A stretch of 64,000 nucleotides of DNA. Source: a virus. Lineage: Duplodnaviria; Caudoviricetes. Positions 5,801 to 44,045 of this stretch are shown here, piece after piece. The stretch covers positions 128,001 through 192,000 of the IMG/VR virus record IMGVR_UViG_3300028603_000017; one strand, given 5' to 3'. Under the pieces are notes generated by a model, which worked only from the letters and a program-made list of their open reading frames with translations, had not been told where the DNA came from and made no database searches. The position numbers were made by a program, and so were the translations under genes. Every line of letters starts with the position of its first letter. Positions within the stretch are counted from its first letter, which is position 1.

Positions 5801-7768
5801 TATTCTGGTACAGGCGGTAGAGTATCTCGCTCGATGACAAAATCTTCTAGAGCTTATCACCCTAACGATATGGGTGTAATCTCTGAAGCTACTGTTGATA
5901 GTTCCGACGTAGCTATTAATACCTATACTTCTGCTGATCCTCAATTCGTATCACTACGAGGTAGGGCTAAGAAATATAACTTTGATGAACAAAATCCTAC
6001 TGCTGTACTAAGCACTAGCGCTTTAACTGCTGTAGGTAGTGATAGTGACGACCCCAAGCGCGTATTGACTTGCGCATTCTTCTCTAATTGCTGGAAACCC
6101 CTAAAACTAGTTAAACTACTGCGAGCAGTAATGCAAAGCGAATGTTTAAAAATTAACTAGATGTTACAATGGGCAATCAGCAGCTAAGCTGGCTGTTTAA
6201 CAGGCAGAAAGTTCAACGACTAGTCGAAAGACGTACATTCAATCGAATGGAAATGGGAAGACTACTTATTTAAGTAGAAGATATAGTCTGGCCTATATGG
6301 AAACATATAGCTGCGCGTAATGGCGCGAAACTACGCAATTGTATTAAGTTAAGACATTTAATACATTAGATAACGTAGTTTGAACACTCGCAAAATTTTA
6401 TTAATATTCAGAATACTCATTCGACTGCTTGTAGTGGATATATGCAAGCTCCTGTGCGTACTGGATATGAATCAGTCTTGGGTCAAAGAACTTCTGATCT
6501 ATTTTGTTATTCTGCTAGACAGAAAGGCAAAGTTATATCTAAGAAAGATAATAGTATTCTAATCGAATACGAAGACGGCACTCAAAAAGGAATACAGTTA
6601 GGTAGACGCTTTGGCGCAGCAGCTGGTCTAACTATTGCTCACAATGTTGTTAGCGATATGAAAGTAGGTCAAGAATTCAATCGTGGCGATATCATTGCTT
6701 ATAACGACGGATTCTTTGAAAAGGATATACTCAATCCTGATAATGTTATTTTAAAAAATGCTGTTCTAGCTAAAACCGTTTTATGGGAGTCTACTCAGAC
6801 TCATGAGGACGCTAGCAGTATTTCTAGGAAACTAGCTGATAAGCTTAGTACTAAAATTACTAAGGTCAAACAAGTTGTTATTAGCTTTGAACAAGAAGTT
6901 AAAGATATCTTAAAGCCTGGTAGTGACGTAGAGCATCAAACAATTCTATGTACAATTGAAGATCCCTTGACTTCAGGTGCTGGACTATTTGATGAAAGTA
7001 CTTTATCTACATTAAAAATGTTTAGCAATCAAACACCTCAAGCTAAAACAAAAGGTGTGTTAGAGAAGATTGAAGTTTTCTATAATGGCGAAAAAGAAGA
7101 CATGAGTGACAGCTTAAGAGCATTGGCTGACGCTGGTGATAGAGCTTTGGCTAGTCAATTCAGGTCTTTGGGTAAGCGCCCAATGACAGGTCAGGTAGAT
7201 GAGGGTTACCGTATTGACGGAGATCCTTTACAGTTAGATCACTTAGTTATTAAGTTTTATCTAACGACTGATGTGTCAGCAGGTGTTGGTGATCGACTTG
7301 GTCCTATTTGTTAGTAATAGCAAAATAGATTTCTCCTTAATTGCTGGGAACTCCTACTTCAGTAGGACAATCAGCAGCCGAACTATCTACTTATAGATAG
7401 AGGGTTCAACGACTATCCCCTAACCAGGGAGTACACTCAAGTGAGTGGAAACAGGAGACTGCCTGTATAACAGGCAGAAGATATAGTCTGCTCTGTATAG
7501 TAATATACAGCAGTACCTTATGGTACGGATAAGGATTAACGACCCTTATTGAACACACAGGAAAGGCGTTTTCGCTAATCAAATGAAGACCGTATTCTCT
7601 GAAGTTATGGATTACGAGATGAGAACAGAGTCTGGTGAAGAGATCGATGCTGTTTTCGGACAGAAGTCTATTGATGATCGTATTGTGTTGTCTGCCTTAA
7701 CAATTGGTACAACAAATACACTGCTTGATGTGATTGCTAAAAAAGCAGTCAAGATTTACGAAAGCTAA
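2837..7768 (+). CDS. Virion RNA polymerase beta subunit (RpoB-like, phiKZ gp178-like), spliced: exons ~2837-6061, ~6391-7293, 7562-7768, about 1444 aa
   Basis: Three ORF-track fragments (2828-6160, 6442-7314, 7583-7768) join through introns 2 and 3 to give DDPKR-x-NFINIQ...APVRTGYE...THEDAS...GVGD|KGVFANQMKT...DAVFG, which are RpoB-like conserved blocks. Confidence 0.9.
6062..6390 (+). mobile_element. Group I intron 2 (329 nt, ORF-less; boundaries uncertain by 2 nt)
   Basis: AATTGCTGGAAA, AATCAGCAG, GTTCAACGACTA and AAGATATAGTC core. Interrupts DDPKR/NFINIQ. The frame-restoring junction is non-canonical (see findings). Confidence 0.88.
7294..7561 (+). mobile_element. Group I intron 3 (268 nt, ORF-less)
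   Basis: Exon ...GGT GAT | intron ... G | AAA GGC GTT restores GDK. The IGS GUC pairs with exon GAU (U.G). P/Q/R/S core present. Confidence 0.93.
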
Positions 7769-35005: not shown

Positions 35006-35392
35006 ATGCTATCCATCAATTCCTATTATTCCTTTAATACCAAGGTACCAGGTATTTTAGGAGAATCATTTAATAATTTAAAATTGGTATCTGTTATGAC
35101 GTATGAGTTAGCTTCTAACTACATCAACGTTGTTTCAATGCATGCCAATATTTATCCAGCTTTACCGCAAGGTATTCCAGATAATCCTGAGAGTTATACT
35201 TATTATCTATTCAAAACAGAATCCAACACCAACGTGGTTTTGGCTGATGTGTGGATTGATGATAATACTATTACAGAAAAAGGCTCTCAATCGATGGTCG
35301 TTGAGATTCCTAGAGTAACCAACTCTGATATTGTCAGACTCAATACTGTTTTGAGAACAATGGGATTTAACTACACTTCTCGTGTGGTGTAA
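35006..35392 (+). CDS. Conserved hypothetical protein (phiKZ gp49-like)
   Basis: 128 aa, HANIYPALPQGIPDNP; precedes the DNA polymerase. Confidence 0.6.
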   Translation: MLSINSYYSFNTKVPGILGESFNNLKLVSVMTYELASNYINVVSMHANIYPALPQGIPDNPESYTYYLFKTESNTNVVLADVWIDDNTITEKGSQSMVVEIPRVTNSDIVRLNTVLRTMGFNYTSRVV

Positions 35393-35414
35393 TAATTTAT
35401 TACTGTATATATTC

Positions 35415-35950
35415 TATGTGAAGTAATCACGAATAACAAAGATGTATCTAAATAACTAGGCTGGAGTAGTGAATAACACTCTGATCTGGTTATTGGATGT
35501 ATCTTTATGCGGTTATTTCCGTCGTTGTTGTGTTGTGAAGAGTCGAACCCTGTGAGTAATAGCGCTTACAGCCATAAATCTCCTTGTGCTTGATGCTTAC
35601 AAGGCTGTAATTGATTGCTATTTACTCACAGGGCTAGACCTAAAAGGTTTCGTAGTGTTGAAGTCGCTGAACCCACATACCTTAGAGCGAGCCCTACTCG
35701 GACTCTATTAATACTTCAACACGTTTTAGGGAGTGAGCAAAGCCGAGGGCGTCGGTTTCAAAGAAAAGTAAATGTTTGACAAAACTCTTTTTCTTTCCTT
35801 TTTCAGGTTTTGTCAAATGGTTCGGGCCATTGGTTGTGGAAGTCAGTGAAGTGATGGTGCTTTTCTTGTTGTTCACGAAACGAAACTAGGTATGTGGTGT
35901 TCTATACAAGCTGGTAGCTATTTCTGTCCAATTGGACAGAAATAGCTACT
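35415..35950 (+). ncRNA. Candidate large structured non-coding RNA
   Basis: 620-nt gap without a credible ORF; many long helices, including G.U pairs on the + strand and crossing (pseudoknot) pairings. See findings. Confidence 0.6.
35914..35949 (+). terminator. Perfect 36-nt palindrome/terminator
   Basis: GTAGCTATTTCTGTCCAATTGGACAGAAATAGCTAC followed by TATG. Confidence 0.75.
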
Positions 35951-36011
35951 ATGCTGCTAATTTTATTTTTTCACCATTATGTTGTGTTAATAGGTAGAAT
36001 TTAAAAAAGTA

Positions 36012-38141
36012 ATGCAAAACCCATTTATTCTCCCAGCAGAGCAATATAAAAGAACAATTGATCCTTTAGGAGACTATTTGAATCAAACAGCACATTACCT
36101 GAATATTTCTACAGGTAAAGCTTTTGATGAATGCAAAGAGTTTGTTAAAAAGAAACTCAAAGACGGCACTTTTCAAATAAAGATTCCACAAGTACAATAC
36201 ATGGAACGTCAAGAAAATGGCGACCGTGTATTGCTCAGAGGATCTTTATTAGGCTATATTCAGCAAACTGTTAAAAATGGTGATGTGATAGCTCCGTCTT
36301 TTACAACATATAAACATGCTGATAAATATGAATCTTTACTAGCTAGCTTCATTGATGGTAACGTAGCCGGTAGATCTAAAGCTAAAAAAGAAGAGTTTGC
36401 TGCTAAAGCTGCTGGTAAAAAAGACTTAGCACAATATAAAAACCTAGAGCAAACAGGCAGAAAGCTATCCAATAATGCTATTTCTGGTGCTCACGTATCA
36501 ACCAGTACGCCATTGGTCAATAAAACAGCTCATTCGTCTTTGACCAGTACATGTAGGGCAACATCTGGATACGGTAATGCCAATAACGAAAAACTCATGA
36601 CTGGCAATAGACATTACTGGAATCCTAATGTTACTTTAAACAATATAGTTTCTATCGTTACCCATACAGACTATGAGCTCTTACAATCTGTCGTAACAAA
36701 ATACAATATCCATCTTCCTACTGTGGAGGATACGATGGATTGTATTCAGTATTCTTCAGATATATATTGGAAAAATGAAGTAGCTATGAACCATATTTAT
36801 GAACTCGTAGCAAAACTCACTCCACTACAAAGAGCTGCTTTTGTTTATACAGGCGATCTTTATCATTTAAGAAAACACAACGATCAGCTCTTAAGAGTAT
36901 TCTTATCTCAGTTATCATCTAAGCACTACGAGATTGATGTAGAAGATACTTTTGATTTTGTTAAGAACTCTAGAGAAGATTATCTTAATTTAGCTCATCA
37001 GATATGTTCTGATGAAATGAGATCCAAAGGTAAAGATTATGTTGCTTTAAAAGGTACTACCAATTTAAAGACACTAGCTGCTACTACCAGAAATATTGAT
37101 TCAGTATTAACCAATTATGCTGATTTAATTAAAGCTATAATGGTTACTGAGAATATGCCTGCATCAGTAGCATATTTTCCTGAATCTGTCAGACGAGCTG
37201 CTCTGATGTCAGATACAGACTCTACTATCTTTACTGTAGAGGAGTGGGTACAATGGTATTGTGGTGATATTGGTTTTAAGCAAGAACATATGTCAATAGC
37301 AGCAAGCTGTATCTTTTTAGCAGCTCAAGCTATCACACATATTCTGGCTATGATGTCAGCTAACTTTAACGTACAGAAAAAACGTCTTTATCAAATTGCG
37401 ATGAAGAACGAATTCAAGTTTGATGTATTTGTACCAACCAATGTAGCCAAACATTATTTTGCCAGTATATCTTGCCAGGAAGGCAATATCTTAGCTGAAT
37501 CTGATGTAGAAATCAAAGGTGTTCACTTAAAGAACTCTAATTCTCCAAAATTCATTACGAGCAAAGCTTCAAAGATGATGGAAGAGATTATGAATACTAT
37601 TATGGATACAGGTAAGATATCTATTCTTAAGTATCTGAAAGAGATTGCTGATATTGAAAGAACTGTTTTTGATTCTATTAAAAATGGTAAACTGGAGTTC
37701 TTTAGATTAGGAGAAATCAAGCAGCCTCAAGCTTATGTCAGAAAACCTGAGGAATCTCCATATGTTTACAATATGCTTTGGGAACAAGTCTTTGCTCCTA
37801 AATATGGTCCAGCTCCTGCATTACCCTATCAAACATTAAGAGTAGCTACTACGATTGATAATCCTACAAAGACCAAGAAGTGGTTAGAGAGTATGGAAGA
37901 TAGAGAATTAGCTGAACGTATGAGAAACTGGTTAGGTGGATTAGGTAAAGTCAATTTACCGAGTTTAATGCTACCGGCAGAGATTACAACAACTAATGGT
38001 ATTCCTAAAGAGATTTTAGATATTATTGATACTAGAAAGATTGTGTATAATTTATGCAAGATTTTCTATTTGATATTAGAGACATTAGGTTTTTATATTT
38101 GTAATGATAATATTACTCGACTAGTATCTGACCAATATTGA
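36012..38141 (+). CDS. Family B DNA polymerase, polymerase-domain subunit (phiKZ gp50-like)
   Basis: KLSNNAISG (motif B-like), SDTDST (motif C), MKNEF, AKHYFA and EIKGVHLK. Confidence 0.88.
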   Translation: MQNPFILPAEQYKRTIDPLGDYLNQTAHYLNISTGKAFDECKEFVKKKLKDGTFQIKIPQVQYMERQENGDRVLLRGSLLGYIQQTVKNGDVIAPSFTTYKHADKYESLLASFIDGNVAGRSKAKKEEFAAKAAGKKDLAQYKNLEQTGRKLSNNAISGAHVSTSTPLVNKTAHSSLTSTCRATSGYGNANNEKLMTGNRHYWNPNVTLNNIVSIVTHTDYELLQSVVTKYNIHLPTVEDTMDCIQYSSDIYWKNEVAMNHIYELVAKLTPLQRAAFVYTGDLYHLRKHNDQLLRVFLSQLSSKHYEIDVEDTFDFVKNSREDYLNLAHQICSDEMRSKGKDYVALKGTTNLKTLAATTRNIDSVLTNYADLIKAIMVTENMPASVAYFPESVRRAALMSDTDSTIFTVEEWVQWYCGDIGFKQEHMSIAASCIFLAAQAITHILAMMSANFNVQKKRLYQIAMKNEFKFDVFVPTNVAKHYFASISCQEGNILAESDVEIKGVHLKNSNSPKFITSKASKMMEEIMNTIMDTGKISILKYLKEIADIERTVFDSIKNGKLEFFRLGEIKQPQAYVRKPEESPYVYNMLWEQVFAPKYGPAPALPYQTLRVATTIDNPTKTKKWLESMEDRELAERMRNWLGGLGKVNLPSLMLPAEITTTNGIPKEILDIIDTRKIVYNLCKIFYLILETLGFYICNDNITRLVSDQY

Positions 38142-39276: not shown

Positions 39277-39479
39277 AATTAGTTATTTATGTATAACATA
39301 GAATAATCGCTTTATATAAAAGCTAAAAGTAAAAATTTATTTTATATTGCCTATGATATAGATAAAGATCTACGCTTCAATCTTACTCATTAGTGGGTAA
39401 GAGCGTAGAACTTATATCACGGACCTTTGATTTTGTAATGTTAATAAAAACTGTGTTTCAAAAAATCACAGTCACTTAT

Positions 39480-39553: not shown

Positions 39554-41440
39554 ATGGCTATTCATGACGGCACTTCACAACAAGCCGCACAACCTCAAGC
39601 AGCTACCCAAGCCGCATTTGATGCTCCTCTAGCAGCTACTGCAGCTGCACCTCAATCGCAAGCACAACAACAAAAAATGAACCAAACTTTCTCCTTTCAC
39701 TCCAACAGCGGTATCTTCGGCACGCCTATCGGTCGCACACCTGGCACGGAAGTGCTGGTGAGCCTGCAAGAAAAGCTCACCGAAATCTACAAGCAAGCCA
39801 AGGACAGTTCTTTTGAGTTTGCGCTCTTTCCTCTGGACAAGAACAACGAACAACAGCTGTATTTCTCAGCTCTGGTTGTTCTGGGTTTTGTACGTGGCGA
39901 TCGCAAGAACGCTGCCTACCACACCCTGATTCTGGAAGCTTCCAACGACGATCCAGGCTCTATCCATCAGCAAGTCCAAAACGACATGATCGAAGTGATT
40001 CGTGTTGCTTCGGATGCTTCGGATAACGAACTCAACAAGATCGCTGTGGAAAAGCTGACTCAAGCTTTCCCTGGCGTGCAGCTGTTTAACGCTGACTCTA
40101 TGGTTGTTCCTCGAAAGTTCAACCTGGAAGACAAGACAGCGGTGCACAATTTGGCACTGAACGCTGCTATGGCCAGTACCACGGAGCTGCGCAAGCGCAC
40201 TCCTGGTTATAGCGATCTGAATATGGCTGGCTTTGCTCGTGACTCTAGCCTGGTGGTAACACCTCGCTTTGAAACCAGCACTGTCAAGAACATTGATGAG
40301 CTGCCTCGTCGTCAAGACGTCAAGATCGTGTTTGGCTCTCAACAAGTCAAGCAACAAAACAACCAGTCTCTGAATTCAGGTGATCGTTCTGCTGCTCTGG
40401 CAGAGATCTCTGGCTATATTGACCTGCTGTGGGCTCCGGTTAATCCCGTGGCTCAATACGGTATGATGCCTGTGCCTGGCTATCAGATGCCTGCTCAAAA
40501 GTATGCAGCTAACCTGATCATTACCAACTTCTTCAGCCCTCGCCTGTCGACTCTGGCCGGTGTTCTGCTGGCTCTGACCACCGTCAAGGCTTTCTCCGAT
40601 CAGAACAACTGGTACGGTGCTTTCCGATCCAACGGCGTGCGTAGCAATATGCGCGATATTGGTTATCTGAACATCGAAGCCAATCTGGGTGGTGACCCGA
40701 ACCAGCCTGGCTCTCCTGTGGAAATCTCTATGGATTCCTACGGTGCGGCAGATCTGTATCGTTATCTGAACCAGCTGATCCGTCCGGGTCTGGCTATTTC
40801 GATTGACGTGCCTGAGTCTGGTCCTGAGTCCTGGCTGCTCTCAGTTCTGAGCGTAGCTGCCTCTGGCAGTGAGCACTCTGGTGATGCACAGCGCATGATC
40901 TTCAACGCTGCTCAAACGCTAACCAACGGTAACTTTGCGAATTTCTTCCCGCAAGGTGCATCCATGTTCGACAACGTTGGTAACCCTGTACATCTTGGTT
41001 ACTACGAGTCCGACAAGGATACCTACCGTGATATCCGTGATATCGACTACGTGGCTGTCGCTGCTCTGAGTCGTGATCTGGATAGCATCAAGCGCTGGTC
41101 TGATACCTGGACGGCTACGTCTGTTCCTCTGGGCAAGCGCATGGATACCCGTCAGCGCTTCATCCGTGATCTGACTGGTGGTAAGGCTGTGTTTACTGGT
41201 AAGGCTAACCGCGTTACCTTTAGCGCTGCTTTCATCGATGCTCTGGTCAAGGGCTGCGCGGCTGTGGGTGTTACGCCTCGTCTGGACGCCAATGGTCTGG
41301 GTAATGTGGTGGTGGATCGCGGCACCGCGTCCTTCATCGATCAAGCTCTGGTGGGTCCTGCACCTACTAACTTCTTCAGCTCCGGTATTGTGGGTGGCTA
41401 TACCAATAGCTATGCTCCCAACAACTTCCGTACCTGGTAA
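39554..41440 (+). CDS. chmA: Chimallin, major phage nuclear shell protein (phiKZ gp54-like)
   Basis: 628 aa with an A/Q-rich disordered N-terminus and strongly biased codons; YRDIRDIDY and TGKANRVTF; located between DNA polymerase and nvRNAP beta'-N. Confidence 0.85.
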   Translation: MAIHDGTSQQAAQPQAATQAAFDAPLAATAAAPQSQAQQQKMNQTFSFHSNSGIFGTPIGRTPGTEVLVSLQEKLTEIYKQAKDSSFEFALFPLDKNNEQQLYFSALVVLGFVRGDRKNAAYHTLILEASNDDPGSIHQQVQNDMIEVIRVASDASDNELNKIAVEKLTQAFPGVQLFNADSMVVPRKFNLEDKTAVHNLALNAAMASTTELRKRTPGYSDLNMAGFARDSSLVVTPRFETSTVKNIDELPRRQDVKIVFGSQQVKQQNNQSLNSGDRSAALAEISGYIDLLWAPVNPVAQYGMMPVPGYQMPAQKYAANLIITNFFSPRLSTLAGVLLALTTVKAFSDQNNWYGAFRSNGVRSNMRDIGYLNIEANLGGDPNQPGSPVEISMDSYGAADLYRYLNQLIRPGLAISIDVPESGPESWLLSVLSVAASGSEHSGDAQRMIFNAAQTLTNGNFANFFPQGASMFDNVGNPVHLGYYESDKDTYRDIRDIDYVAVAALSRDLDSIKRWSDTWTATSVPLGKRMDTRQRFIRDLTGGKAVFTGKANRVTFSAAFIDALVKGCAAVGVTPRLDANGLGNVVVDRGTASFIDQALVGPAPTNFFSSGIVGGYTNSYAPNNFRTW

Positions 41441-42086: not shown

Positions 42087-44045
42087 GTGGCTGTATCTGA
42101 AGAGTTAGTTAATTTCAACCAGCTATTTAATCAGCTAAAGCAACCTCCCTTGATTATCAACGATATTGTTGAGACATCAGCAGAGGAAAAAGATACACTG
42201 AAGAATCTGATATTTACTAAGTATGATTCTGATGTGATGAAAAACGTACCTAGCTGTGACTGTGGTAGTATCACAGGTGAATACAATATCGGTGTTCTAT
42301 GTAAAAACTGTGATACCGAAGTTGTATCAGCTGTAGATAAAGAGCTAGAGCCTATTCTTTGGGTAAGAGCGCCTAAGAATATTCATGCATTAATTAATCC
42401 TACTGTTTGGACTCAGTTATCTCTGAGATTCAAGAAGAGTAATTTTGATACTATTCGCTGGATTTGTGATACAACTTATAGAGTAGGACCTAATGATGGA
42501 GCTATTGTAGCTGAGCTGCAAGAAGCTGGTATTACCAGAGGTTACAATAACTTTATTGAAAACTTTTACGATATCATCAATCGCTTATTTGAGATGAGGA
42601 GTTTTTCCTCTAAATCAAGAGTGACTTATGATCTACTACCACAATTGCTGGTAGAAAATAAAGATTCAATATTCTCTCAATATCTACCACTGGTTAACAG
42701 AACCATGCTAGTAATTGAGTCTACGACTGTTGGTACATATGTCGATCCATTTGTACCTACTGCTATTGATGCTATTTTAACAGTAGCATCAATTGATGTG
42801 GATGAATCTAGGTTTTCTATTAGGACAAAGGAAAACAGAGTTGCTAAGTTCCTATCTGGAATCAGTAGTTATTACTATAACTTTGCGAAAAACAATCTAG
42901 GTAGAAAGTCAGGCACCTATAGGCAACACGTTTATGGATCACGATCTCACTTCTCATTTAGAGCGGTGGTGTCGTCTTTAACGGACGCTCACCAGTATGA
43001 TGAGATTCATATTCCGTGGGGTATCGGAATTACTATATTTCGATATCACATCATCAATAAACTCATTCGACGAGGATATACCGTCAATCAAGCGATATAT
43101 CTGATTAATGCACACGCAAAGGTATTTCATCCACTCATTAACGAGATCTTTAAAGAACTCATTGATGAATCACCTCGTAAAGGTGTCGATGTAACTATTA
43201 ATCGAAATCCCTCTTTGGTACGTGGATCTATTCAAAGAGTGAGGATTACTAAAGTCAAAGAAGATACCTCAATCAATACTGTTTCATTCAGCATTTTGAT
43301 TGTAGGTCCCATGAACGCTAAAGATTGGTGTTCTAAAAGCTCCTTAATTGCTGGGAACTCCTGTAAAGGACAATCAGCAGCTGATCCTAGATACATATCT
43401 AGGCGAGTTCAACGACTAGTCGAAAGACGTACAGCCAAGCGGCTGGAAACAGGAGCCAGTCTCTGAATAAGAGATGGAAGATATAGTCTGAACATCTGTG
43501 GTAACACAGAGCTGGATTCACTATCCGGGTAATGCGTAGCGAACATTGCTGAACATATTTGGATTTTGACGGTGGAAGCATTGCCGTCTCGAAAGCTTTT
43601 GAATTGCTGGGAACTCTCACACCGAGACAATCAGCAGCCAAGATCTTATTTGCTTACCGGTAAATAGGATAAGGTTCAACGACTATCCCGAAAGGGAGTA
43701 CAGCCAAGCGGCTGGAAGCGGAAGCCACCAAACCAGGTGAAGATATAGTCTGAACATCTATGGTGACATAGAGCGAAGCAGGTAATGCTGCGGGTTAGGA
43801 AATAGCGAGCCTAGCTGAACAATACGGATGCCCTTAATTTCACTTTGACTTTAGATAACGATTTGTCTGAAGAGCTCAAGCATCTTGATCCACATAAGAG
43901 CTGTTTTGAACTCGATGAACCTAGAACCATCTCTGGCAATCTCTCGATTCCCAAGACAGTTGTAGGCACAATTAGTAATTGGTTACATTTTGAAGAACCT
44001 GATAACACACCCACGGACTTTATGAAGTCTATTGCAATAGGTTAA
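42087..44045 (+). CDS. Non-virion RNAP beta'-N subunit (RpoC-like, phiKZ gp55/56.1-like), spliced: exons 42087-43319, 43562-43573, 43827-44045, 487 aa
   Basis: Zn finger CDCG...CKNC, GSRSHFSFRAV and NRNPSL. Splicing gives GPMNA|DFDG|DALNFTL, i.e. NADFDGD. Confidence 0.93.
43320..43561 (+). mobile_element. Group I intron 4 (242 nt, ORF-less)
   Basis: P1: exon AACGCU pairs with IGS GGUGUU (U.G at the splice site). P10: AAGAUU pairs with exon GAUUUU. P/Q/R/S core; terminal G. Confidence 0.93.
43574..43826 (+). mobile_element. Group I intron 5 (253 nt, ORF-less)
   Basis: P1: exon GACGGU pairs with IGS GCCGUC. P10: GCAUU pairs with exon GAUGC. P/Q/R/S core; terminal G. Confidence 0.93.

Follow-up and report, generated by a model that had tools for sequence, protein, structure and literature searches.

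The stretch of DNA considered here, hereafter the window, comprises 64,000 nucleotides (nt) of a Caudoviricetes virus, corresponding to bases 128001-192000 of the 261-kb IMG/VR record IMGVR_UViG_3300028603_000017, which is about 95% complete. Within it, the gene of an SH3DP protein (PF20287) and that of a divergent family-B DNA polymerase (PF20286) are separated by a gap that is wholly filled by a structured element and its flanking signals, and it is this element that we describe. Since a chimallin gene (39554-41440, annotation taken from relatives) stands in the same window as the PF20286 polymerase and the PF20287 SH3DP gene, the source is a phiKZ-like, nucleus-forming jumbo phage, only distantly related to the cultured ones; its closest cultured polymerase match is that of Burkholderia phage FLC9, at 51%. 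A preliminary description of the locus, made from the letters alone, had proposed here a complex pseudoknotted RNA on the + strand. The features to which we refer are the following:

35006-35392, + strand: SH3DP gene (PF20287), upstream neighbour, given as context
35393-36011, + strand: gap between SH3DP and polymerase genes, 619 nt
35395-35418, + strand: promoter-like box right after the SH3DP stop, an A/T-rich run and then TATATATTCTATG (from conservation; putative promoter role)
35427-35538, + strand: hairpin A, long and irregular, including the hairpin 35438-35506 of the preliminary description (from the minimum free energy, MFE, fold)
35548-35633, + strand: hairpin B, a long arm closed by CCCTGTGAGTAA/TTACTCACAGGG (from the MFE fold and the folding of family members)
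35647-35653, + strand: 5' strand of helix Pc (GTTTCGT), pairing with 35880-35886
35655-35664, + strand: 5' strand of helix Pa (GTGTTGAAGT), pairing with 35713-35722
35669-35682, + strand: 5' strand of helix Pb (GAAC-CCACATACCT), within the Pa loop, pairing with 35888-35902 and crossing Pa and Pc
35683-35707, + strand: H1, two-part hairpin with a 2-nt 3' bulge (GA in most members), in the Pa loop (local-hairpin search)
35713-35722, + strand: 3' strand of Pa (ACTTCAACAC), followed by an invariant G (alignment)
35743-35755, + strand: H2, small hairpin (CCGA-GGGCG-TCGG; local-hairpin search)
35761-35770, + strand: 5' strand of helix Pd (AAGAAAAGTA), pairing with 35858-35867 and closing the 3' multibranch
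35773-35819, + strand: H3, a 14-base-pair (bp) stem, which covaries, with a 19-nt pyrimidine loop at 35787-35805 (CUUUUUCUUUCCUUUUUCA)
35858-35867, + strand: 3' strand of Pd (TGCTTTTCTT; helix search)
35880-35902, + strand: 3' strands of Pc (35880-35886) and Pb (35888-35902), contiguous on one strand
35909-35961, + strand: terminator, a 17-18 bp palindromic hairpin (35909-35950) and then TATGCTGCTAA (genome motif count)
35962-35986, + strand: T-run (TTTTATTTTTT) and TTATGTTGTG box, 25 nt before the polymerase ATG (conserved in relatives)
36012-38141, + strand: DNA polymerase gene (PF20286), downstream neighbour, given as context

Read as RNA, the + strand of the element reaches an MFE of -181.9 kcal/mol, against -136.8 +/- 5.8 kcal/mol for dinucleotide shuffles (z -7.85); none of 100 shuffles folds as well, which settles in its favour the comparison with shuffled controls that had been suggested for it. 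The MFE fold includes the hairpins 35438-35506, 35548-35633 and 35775-35817, the closing helix 35761-70/35858-67 and the 3' palindrome. The core (35639-35902) has a G+C content of 43%, compared with 36.5% for the genome, in which the element is single-copy according to both a family-profile nhmmer search and a genome search. No match to the gap was obtained by blastn among 50,697 phage records, and nhmmer with the family profile returned close relatives only.

Relatives were gathered by protein search with the polymerase, which yielded a graded series of uncultured phages, and the DNA around 11 further distinct loci (polymerase 90-56% identical) was compared, making 12 loci with the window; they are given L numbers where they have to be told apart. 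The order SH3DP, gap of 357-620 nt, polymerase is kept in 12/12 loci, and the gaps align in blocks. In an unfitted MAFFT alignment of 10 sequences, scored with the structure of the preliminary description including its pseudoknot brackets, 67.2% of the cells are paired, compared with 59.6 +/- 1.1% when partners are shuffled; none of 500 partner shuffles is as high, and slid partners reach 39-47%. The architecture is kept through compensatory changes across the 11 further loci; a test of covariation in related phages had been suggested for this gap. Many of the conserved pairs are G.U, and therefore the + strand is the folded strand.

For the individual helices, a covariance model of the 5' core (R1) and its iterated version (R2) were used, and Pb, Pc, Pd and H3 were sought in narrow homologous windows, each with shuffle controls. 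All the helices that the preliminary description had drawn by hand are present where it placed them in this DNA, and most of them extend to the family. This is clearest for the nested helix Pa, which in the model-fitted alignment (A9, via R1) has 100% of its cells paired in 10/10 sequences and compensatory double changes at 9/10 pairs, and which is found also in L182 and L183. Pb, proposed as a crossing pairing of 35669-82 with 35888-902, joins part of the Pa loop to a segment some 200 nt downstream; a helix of 9-15 bp is present at the homologous place in 12/12 loci, with per-locus shuffle p values of 0.000-0.035. The crossing pairing of GTTTCGT (Pc) holds in 8/12 loci as helices of 6-9 bp lying 0-2 nt from Pa and Pb, and is weak or absent in L174, L175, L182 and L183; in the eight loci that have it, the 3' strands of Pc and Pb are separated by only 0-2 nt. 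Over its anchored 9 bp Pb is 100% paired and 0/500 shuffles reach its score, and Pc shows double changes at all 6 anchored pairs, with 0/500 partner shuffles reaching the observed score, although such perfect pairing is partly by construction, because the positions of both helices were picked by best complementarity in narrow windows; the fairer measures are the per-locus shuffle p values (0.000-0.075 across the loci counted) and the unfitted MAFFT alignment. Pa, Pb and Pc cross one another, and therefore the claim of a pseudoknot stands.

The remainder of the core is conserved in shape rather more than in letters. Pd, put forward as the helix that closes a multibranch, is represented in relatives by helices of 10-16 bp of unrelated sequence, for instance AACTCTTATAA/TTATAAGAGTT in L007, and is clear in 7/10. 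H1 has the same shape in 10/10 sequences despite its changed stem sequences (p 0.000-0.065), and H2 is a local hairpin of 4-5 bp, again with changed stem sequences, from the window through L173 (most members). Two of the pairings first proposed did not survive the comparison: that of CCTAAAA with TTTTAGG (35639-45/35724-30) is confined to the window, the other loci giving p > 0.1, and the crossing pairing of GCCC..TCGG with CCGAGGGC gives way to two local hairpins, H1 and H2, which are conserved in its place. A likeness of UGAAGUCG in Pa to the decoding-site strand of 16S rRNA was dropped, as Pa covaries freely and the sequence is not conserved.

Altogether, the fold comprises a compact core preceded by one long arm, or two, on its 5' side. 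Within the core, Pb, together with Pc in most members, ties the loop of the Pa hairpin (45-65 nt) to the distal 3' segment and so encloses H1, H2 and the Pd multibranch that bears H3. Together, R1 and R2 recognise 12/12 loci at 46-91 bits, and R1 alone gives 15.6 bits for L183 and 11.9 for L182; in about 120 loci whose polymerase is at most 55% identical, the same models found no member. The family, defined by its core, is therefore specific to one clade of uncultured chimallin-encoding phages. Its signature, present in the 12 loci, is Pa with H1 in its loop, Pb to the 3' segment, H3 with UUCCUUUU, and the position between SH3DP and polymerase.

The preliminary description could not name the class of this RNA, and indeed the element fits no Rfam 15 family. 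Rfam 15 was scanned with cmscan over the window at gathering thresholds and over 35300-36100 at E values up to 10, and only chance microRNA-type matches to the terminal palindrome appeared, at no more than 22.7 bits. At this permissive level the region is blank for the group I intron core (RF00028), for group II, HDV, twister and other ribozymes, and for riboswitch families; neither GOLLD, ROOL, HEARO, OLE or raiA nor any other large Rfam RNA gave a covariance-model match near its gathering score. ARAGORN found no tRNA and no tmRNA in the window, nor is there an Rfam tmRNA match, so that the statement that the element lacks a group I core and tRNA or tmRNA ends proved correct. No intron-like interruption of a reading frame is seen: the SH3DP stop codon lies at 35390-92, and the polymerase matches its Pfam profile from position 2. 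The gap holds no conserved open reading frame (ORF) either; a small-ORF reading was ruled out, as ORFs of at least 25 aa are not kept in place and two members have none on the + strand. A literature search found no published description of this RNA. Considering the Pa/Pb crossing in the 12 loci, the folding strength and the lack of an Rfam 15 counterpart, the proposal of a complex pseudoknotted structured RNA on the + strand is borne out, and we hold it very probable that the element is a functional one.

The part of this RNA that is constant in sequence is the loop of H3, described earlier as an 11-bp hairpin at 35775-35817. The hairpin is present in every member, and its stem changes freely; the 8-mer UUCCUUUU of the loop is invariant in 12/12 loci, and no other hairpin of this type in the 261-kb genome has a long stem. 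Ahead of start codons, the hexamers AAGGAA and AAAGGA are the most enriched in this genome, and AAAGGAA(A/G), the enriched ribosome-binding-site consensus of the phage, has its complement in the loop segment CUUUCCUUU. With start-codon calls that are crude, the loop pairs on average at -4.52 kcal/mol with start-codon windows and at -3.35 kcal/mol with coding interiors (p 1e-5).

The 5' arms are less uniform. Hairpin B is found in 10/10 members folded, in agreement with the long arm originally drawn at 35548-35633, and its closing stems differ much (TCTTCTATTAGAT.., GCCCTGGTTTGC.., CTCCCTCTGTC..). Within hairpin B, an internal loop exposes a second CUCC-type stretch (AUAAAUCUCC, 35571-35581), which only the closest relative, L004, shares and which is therefore unlikely to belong to the family at large. 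Hairpin A occurs in the window and in L004, L005, L006 and L007, and is absent from L008, L010, L173, L174 and L175; the hairpin proposed at 35438-35506 is thus present in the fold of the window but confined to the closer half of the family.

At its 3' end the element is bounded by a hairpin, the perfect palindrome noticed in the preliminary description, which is indeed present at 35909-35950. In the genome, TATG stands at the stem end of 119 of 565 hairpins with stems of at least 10 bp (21%), compared with a background of 3.3%, and the consensus after the hairpins is TATG-YYG-YT. In phiKZ, the terminator motif has been described as a hairpin followed by TTATKYYGT (PMC10914365), and the hairpin 35909-35950 with TATGCTGCT has the make-up of such a phiKZ-type intrinsic terminator. 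Hairpin and TATG are kept in all relatives, with covarying stems. As the same motif is that of the genome and of phiKZ, the element therefore ends in the ordinary terminator type of the phage. The hairpin is a self-contained palindrome outside the conserved long-range helices, and no alternative pairing of the terminator/anti-terminator kind was seen. A repeated terminator cassette occurs at many gene ends of the window (e.g., 10930, 12927, 23959, 28284 and 38150), often as GCTCCAGGTAGG-N7/8-CCTACCTGGAGC and then (G/C)TATGYYG; because of its palindromic form, it can serve as a terminator sequence in either direction.

A single conserved block marks the 5' edge of the gap, namely the box that follows the SH3DP stop, which in relatives takes the form of a T-run/A-run and TATAT(N3-4)TAT(G/A). 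The TATG noted at 35415 as resembling a phiKZ late promoter is present, but its reading as a late promoter is uncertain, TATG mainly following terminator hairpins in this genome. Ahead of the chimallin gene, at 39330-39355 of the window (box 39343), there is a T-run and then TATATTGCCTATG, of the same kind as 35406-35418; this box type may be an early promoter type of the phage. After the terminator, the box at 35962-35986, which in relatives reads TTTTATTTTT..TATAnTGTG, may be the polymerase's own promoter. The early promoters of phiKZ carry a T-rich motif upstream of -19 and an extended -10 (PMC8244752), and the two boxes at 35395-35418 and 35962-35986, conserved across relatives, fit this wording. 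A scan for sigma-70 promoters and classical terminators gave nothing meaningful. Since the element has a terminator of the phage's own type at its 3' end and a conserved box at its 5' end, it is probably a discrete transcript.

Beyond the family, half of the more distant chimallivirus loci also have a gap of 250-650 nt before the polymerase gene. Hairpins with a stem of at least 7 bp and a loop of 11-26 nt (pyrimidine content at least 85%, with UCCU, CCUU or CUCC in it) were found in 24/66 distinct pre-polymerase gaps, that is, 0.82 per kb of sense strand, compared with 0.03 per kb on the antisense strand and 0.01-0.06 per kb in the polymerase coding region; they occur before the polymerase in at least 10 chimallivirus lineages outside the family. 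One separate clade (L036, L046, L047 and L048, at about 1100-1430 of each locus) has its own conserved, covarying RNA in front of the polymerase gene; it measures some 330 nt and bears a pair of pyrimidine loops, CAUUCCUUCUUCA and UUUCCCCCUCUUUC.

Among the cultured phages checked, FLC9 is the only one with a comparable gap (L171 1953-2488). This G+C-rich gap of 536 nt folds better than shuffles (z -4.25) and has two pyrimidine loops, UUCCUCCUCCC and UUUCUUCCUUGUUU (the latter as GGG-UUUCUUCCUUGUUU-CCC), then a terminator and CCTTTTTATGCCGTC; it is the best cultured model for such an element. The gap between SH3DP and polymerase measures only 101-247 nt in RP12, pVa-21, Xoo-sp14, pEa_SNUABM_54, BUCT660, PhiPA3 and phiKZ. 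In Ralstonia phage RP12, an 11-bp hairpin with the pyrimidine loop GUUUCUUUCCUUUAA (L176 459-495) is found in a gap of 437 nt ahead of the SH3DP-like ORF004 instead of in the gap before the polymerase, so that the analogous element seems to be shifted by one gene. In the gp49-gp50 gap of phiKZ (L172 16378-16578, 201 nt), a terminator is followed by a T-run, the palindrome GGGTACCC and UUCUUUCCUUUUCUUUUUU; this last is a pyrimidine tract that resembles the H3 loop but lies outside any hairpin loop. A descriptor search for Pa/Pb/Pc in the distant gaps returned 7 forward and 2 reverse-complement matches, in A/T-rich or terminator sequence; these look like chance, and therefore homology of the distant RNAs is not established, common descent of the pre-polymerase RNAs across lineages being plausible.

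Taking all this together, we propose that the locus is a non-coding RNA gene of about 540 nt, on the + strand from roughly 35420 to 35955-60, whose H3 loop acts in trans on mRNAs. The RNA would be transcribed from the conserved box just after SH3DP and would end at the phage-type terminator, giving a discrete molecule. Its folded body would serve as a scaffold that holds out the single-stranded pyrimidine loop of H3, and this loop, the exact complement of AAAGGAA, would pair with the purine-rich Shine-Dalgarno regions of mRNAs, tuning or blocking their translation in the manner of the C/U-rich loops of Staphylococcus RNAIII, to which the element is unrelated. This is the first-ranked of the functions considered, yet a tentative one: we give the whole statement, mechanism included, a probability of about 0.35, and the mechanism itself about 0.3-0.35.

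Besides the partly constructed pairing of Pb and Pc, several observations weigh against this proposal. Composition-matched shuffles of the H3 loop pair as well with the start-codon windows as the real one (-4.80 +/- 0.31 vs -4.52 kcal/mol), and the complementarity may therefore just reflect a pyrimidine-rich loop meeting purine-rich sites. No extended specific target of the loop was found in the genome beyond the ordinary ribosome-binding sites, and a loop complementary to all of these has no obvious selectivity between host and phage mRNAs. Hence the anti-Shine-Dalgarno reading of the loop is consistent with the data without being specifically singled out by them, and a protein-binding role is equally open. 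As to the transcript, there is no terminator between the SH3DP gene and the element, so that, in place of the stand-alone RNA first supposed, an origin from a 3' untranslated region (UTR) or a role as leader of the polymerase mRNA is possible. Furthermore, a recurrent promoter motif was searched for in the genome and none was derived, the box at 35962-35986 not being recurrent; we therefore infer both promoters from their conservation across phages only.

The first of the alternatives takes the invariant loop as a site for a protein. The UUCCUUUU loop, perhaps with the conserved AGUCGC and the bulge of H1, would be recognised by ribosomal protein S1, Hfq, a cold-shock protein or a phage RNA-binding protein, and the RNA would form a ribonucleoprotein or titrate its partner. 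Single strands rich in U or in pyrimidines are favoured by S1 and Hfq; while the stems drift, the loop keeps its very sequence and not its composition alone, the order of its bases brings no pairing advantage over shuffled loops, and a body of this kind, large, rigid and pseudoknotted, is what RNAs acting as particles typically have. On the other hand, no gene covaries in presence with the RNA, SH3DP and polymerase being found also in phages that lack it, and we consider this explanation rather unlikely. Ranked beside it, and just as much in doubt, is a leader or attenuator acting in cis on the polymerase mRNA: the terminator at 35909-35961 would stop most transcripts, whether begun just after SH3DP or running on from that gene, a regulated read-through would set the polymerase level, and the short RNA would be a by-product. 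Within the family, the element is always on the polymerase strand and directly upstream of that gene, the box downstream of the terminator does not recur in the genome as a promoter motif, and phiKZ offers a precedent, since ONT-cappable-seq detected there 17 5'UTR-derived RNAs produced by premature termination (PMC10914365). Nevertheless, the terminator is of the ordinary genome-wide class and has no visible anti-terminator partner, no riboswitch family was matched, and a conserved T-run with a -10-like box, as in phiKZ early promoters, stands between terminator and start codon. Moreover, some 500 nt of covarying pseudoknotted structure far exceed the needs of known attenuators, and the comparable pyrimidine-loop hairpin of RP12 lies upstream of the SH3DP-like gene and not beside the polymerase.

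Two further explanations carry much less weight. The RNA could be linked to replication, as an origin transcript, a primer, an R-loop former or a polymerase cofactor, its size being comparable to that of ColE1 RNA II. In its favour there is just one point, the unchanging position next to the polymerase gene across many chimallivirus lineages, in a region whose synteny is conserved anyway; to our knowledge, the origin and priming mechanism of chimalliviruses are not established. Given that the invariant loop is pyrimidine-rich RNA and not a G-rich, hybrid-forming tract, and that phiKZ and PhiPA3 replicate without a gap of such size, a role of this kind appears improbable. Lowest of all we place the possibility that the locus is not an RNA gene, that is, a set of inverted repeats working at the DNA level, in packaging, recombination or the binding of proteins, or else the remnant of a mobile element or ribozyme. 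Group I introns abound in the window, and the minus strand also folds better than its shuffles (MFE -153.7 kcal/mol; z -7.39), as any set of inverted repeats would. However, the many conserved G.U pairs become A.C on the other strand or in DNA cruciforms, and only a single-stranded fold would account for crossing helices and for compensatory changes over long range. Besides, the element is single-copy, occupies one syntenic site without flanking repeats, and lacks any group I, group II, HDV, twister or other ribozyme match, which makes this last explanation very improbable indeed.

Extending the trans-acting RNA to nucleus-forming jumbo phages as a group is a doubtful step, which we rate below both the protein-binding and the leader explanations. 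These phages would share a fast-evolving, early, pre-polymerase RNA with one constant feature, a hairpin that mimics the anti-Shine-Dalgarno tail of 16S rRNA; the RNA would compete with ribosomes for ribosome-binding sites and so reprogram translation during the take-over of the cell. If true, such an "rRNA-tail decoy" encoded by a virus would control translation in a way for which no phage precedent has been described.

Several known systems help to place the element. RNAIII of Staphylococcus aureus is a non-coding RNA of about 500 nt, built of multiple hairpins, with pyrimidine-rich loops complementary to Shine-Dalgarno sequences. RNAIII (RF00503), together with other regulatory RNAs that have C/U-rich hairpin loops (RsaE/RoxS type), is the closest functional analogue; RNAIII shares with the element its size, its multiple hairpins and a pyrimidine loop complementary in sequence to Shine-Dalgarno regions, an anti-Shine-Dalgarno function being putative in the element. 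The two differ in that RNAIII has no similarity to the element in sequence or model (no Rfam match), in that the element's loop is U-rich (UUCCUUUU) where RNAIII has UCCC, and in that the element is phage-encoded with a long-range pseudoknot as its body, whereas RNAIII is a string of independent hairpins. Closest in kind are GOLLD, ROOL and other ornate RNAs of phages and prophages, which are likewise large, elaborate and found by comparative sequence analysis; unlike them, the element gives no covariance-model match, is not near tRNA genes, belongs to chimalliviruses and keeps a fixed place before the polymerase gene.

Nearer in biology, T4 and RB69 have a translational operator at gene 43, a hairpin of about 36 nt overlapping the ribosome-binding site, through which the DNA polymerase regulates itself. 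Like the element, it is an RNA upstream of a phage family-B DNA polymerase gene, but with its roughly 500 nt the element is larger, stops 60 nt short of the start codon and has a terminator after it. The non-coding RNA candidates of phiKZ, delimited by terminators or derived from 5'UTRs and obtained by Grad-seq, dRNA-seq and ONT-cappable-seq (PMC8545117, PMC8244752, PMC10914365) come from the same virus group, have the same terminator type and lie upstream of genes; they measure 89-210 nt, none is reported at the polymerase gene, and the 201-nt gap of phiKZ has no comparable structure.

Large conserved pseudoknotted RNAs are rare, and those that are understood (ribozymes, RNase P, tmRNA and riboswitch classes) are central machines. 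Chimalliviruses, in turn, keep translation apart from transcription, which takes place within a protein "nucleus"; no structured RNA is yet known to be linked with that biology. In this context, the element constitutes a well-supported new RNA family with a clear alignment and a testable loop, and the similar hairpins in at least 10 lineages, including the culturable FLC9 and RP12, point to a wider class. Should the loop act on ribosome-binding sites, this would be a way of controlling translation that is new for viruses; even otherwise, the RNA lends itself well to structure determination.

Elsewhere in the window, five group I introns were found at 60-94 bits (2285-2612, 6007-6310, 7247-7510, 43309-43511 and 43541-43773), the last two of them standing in tandem, 30 nt apart, at 43309-43773.

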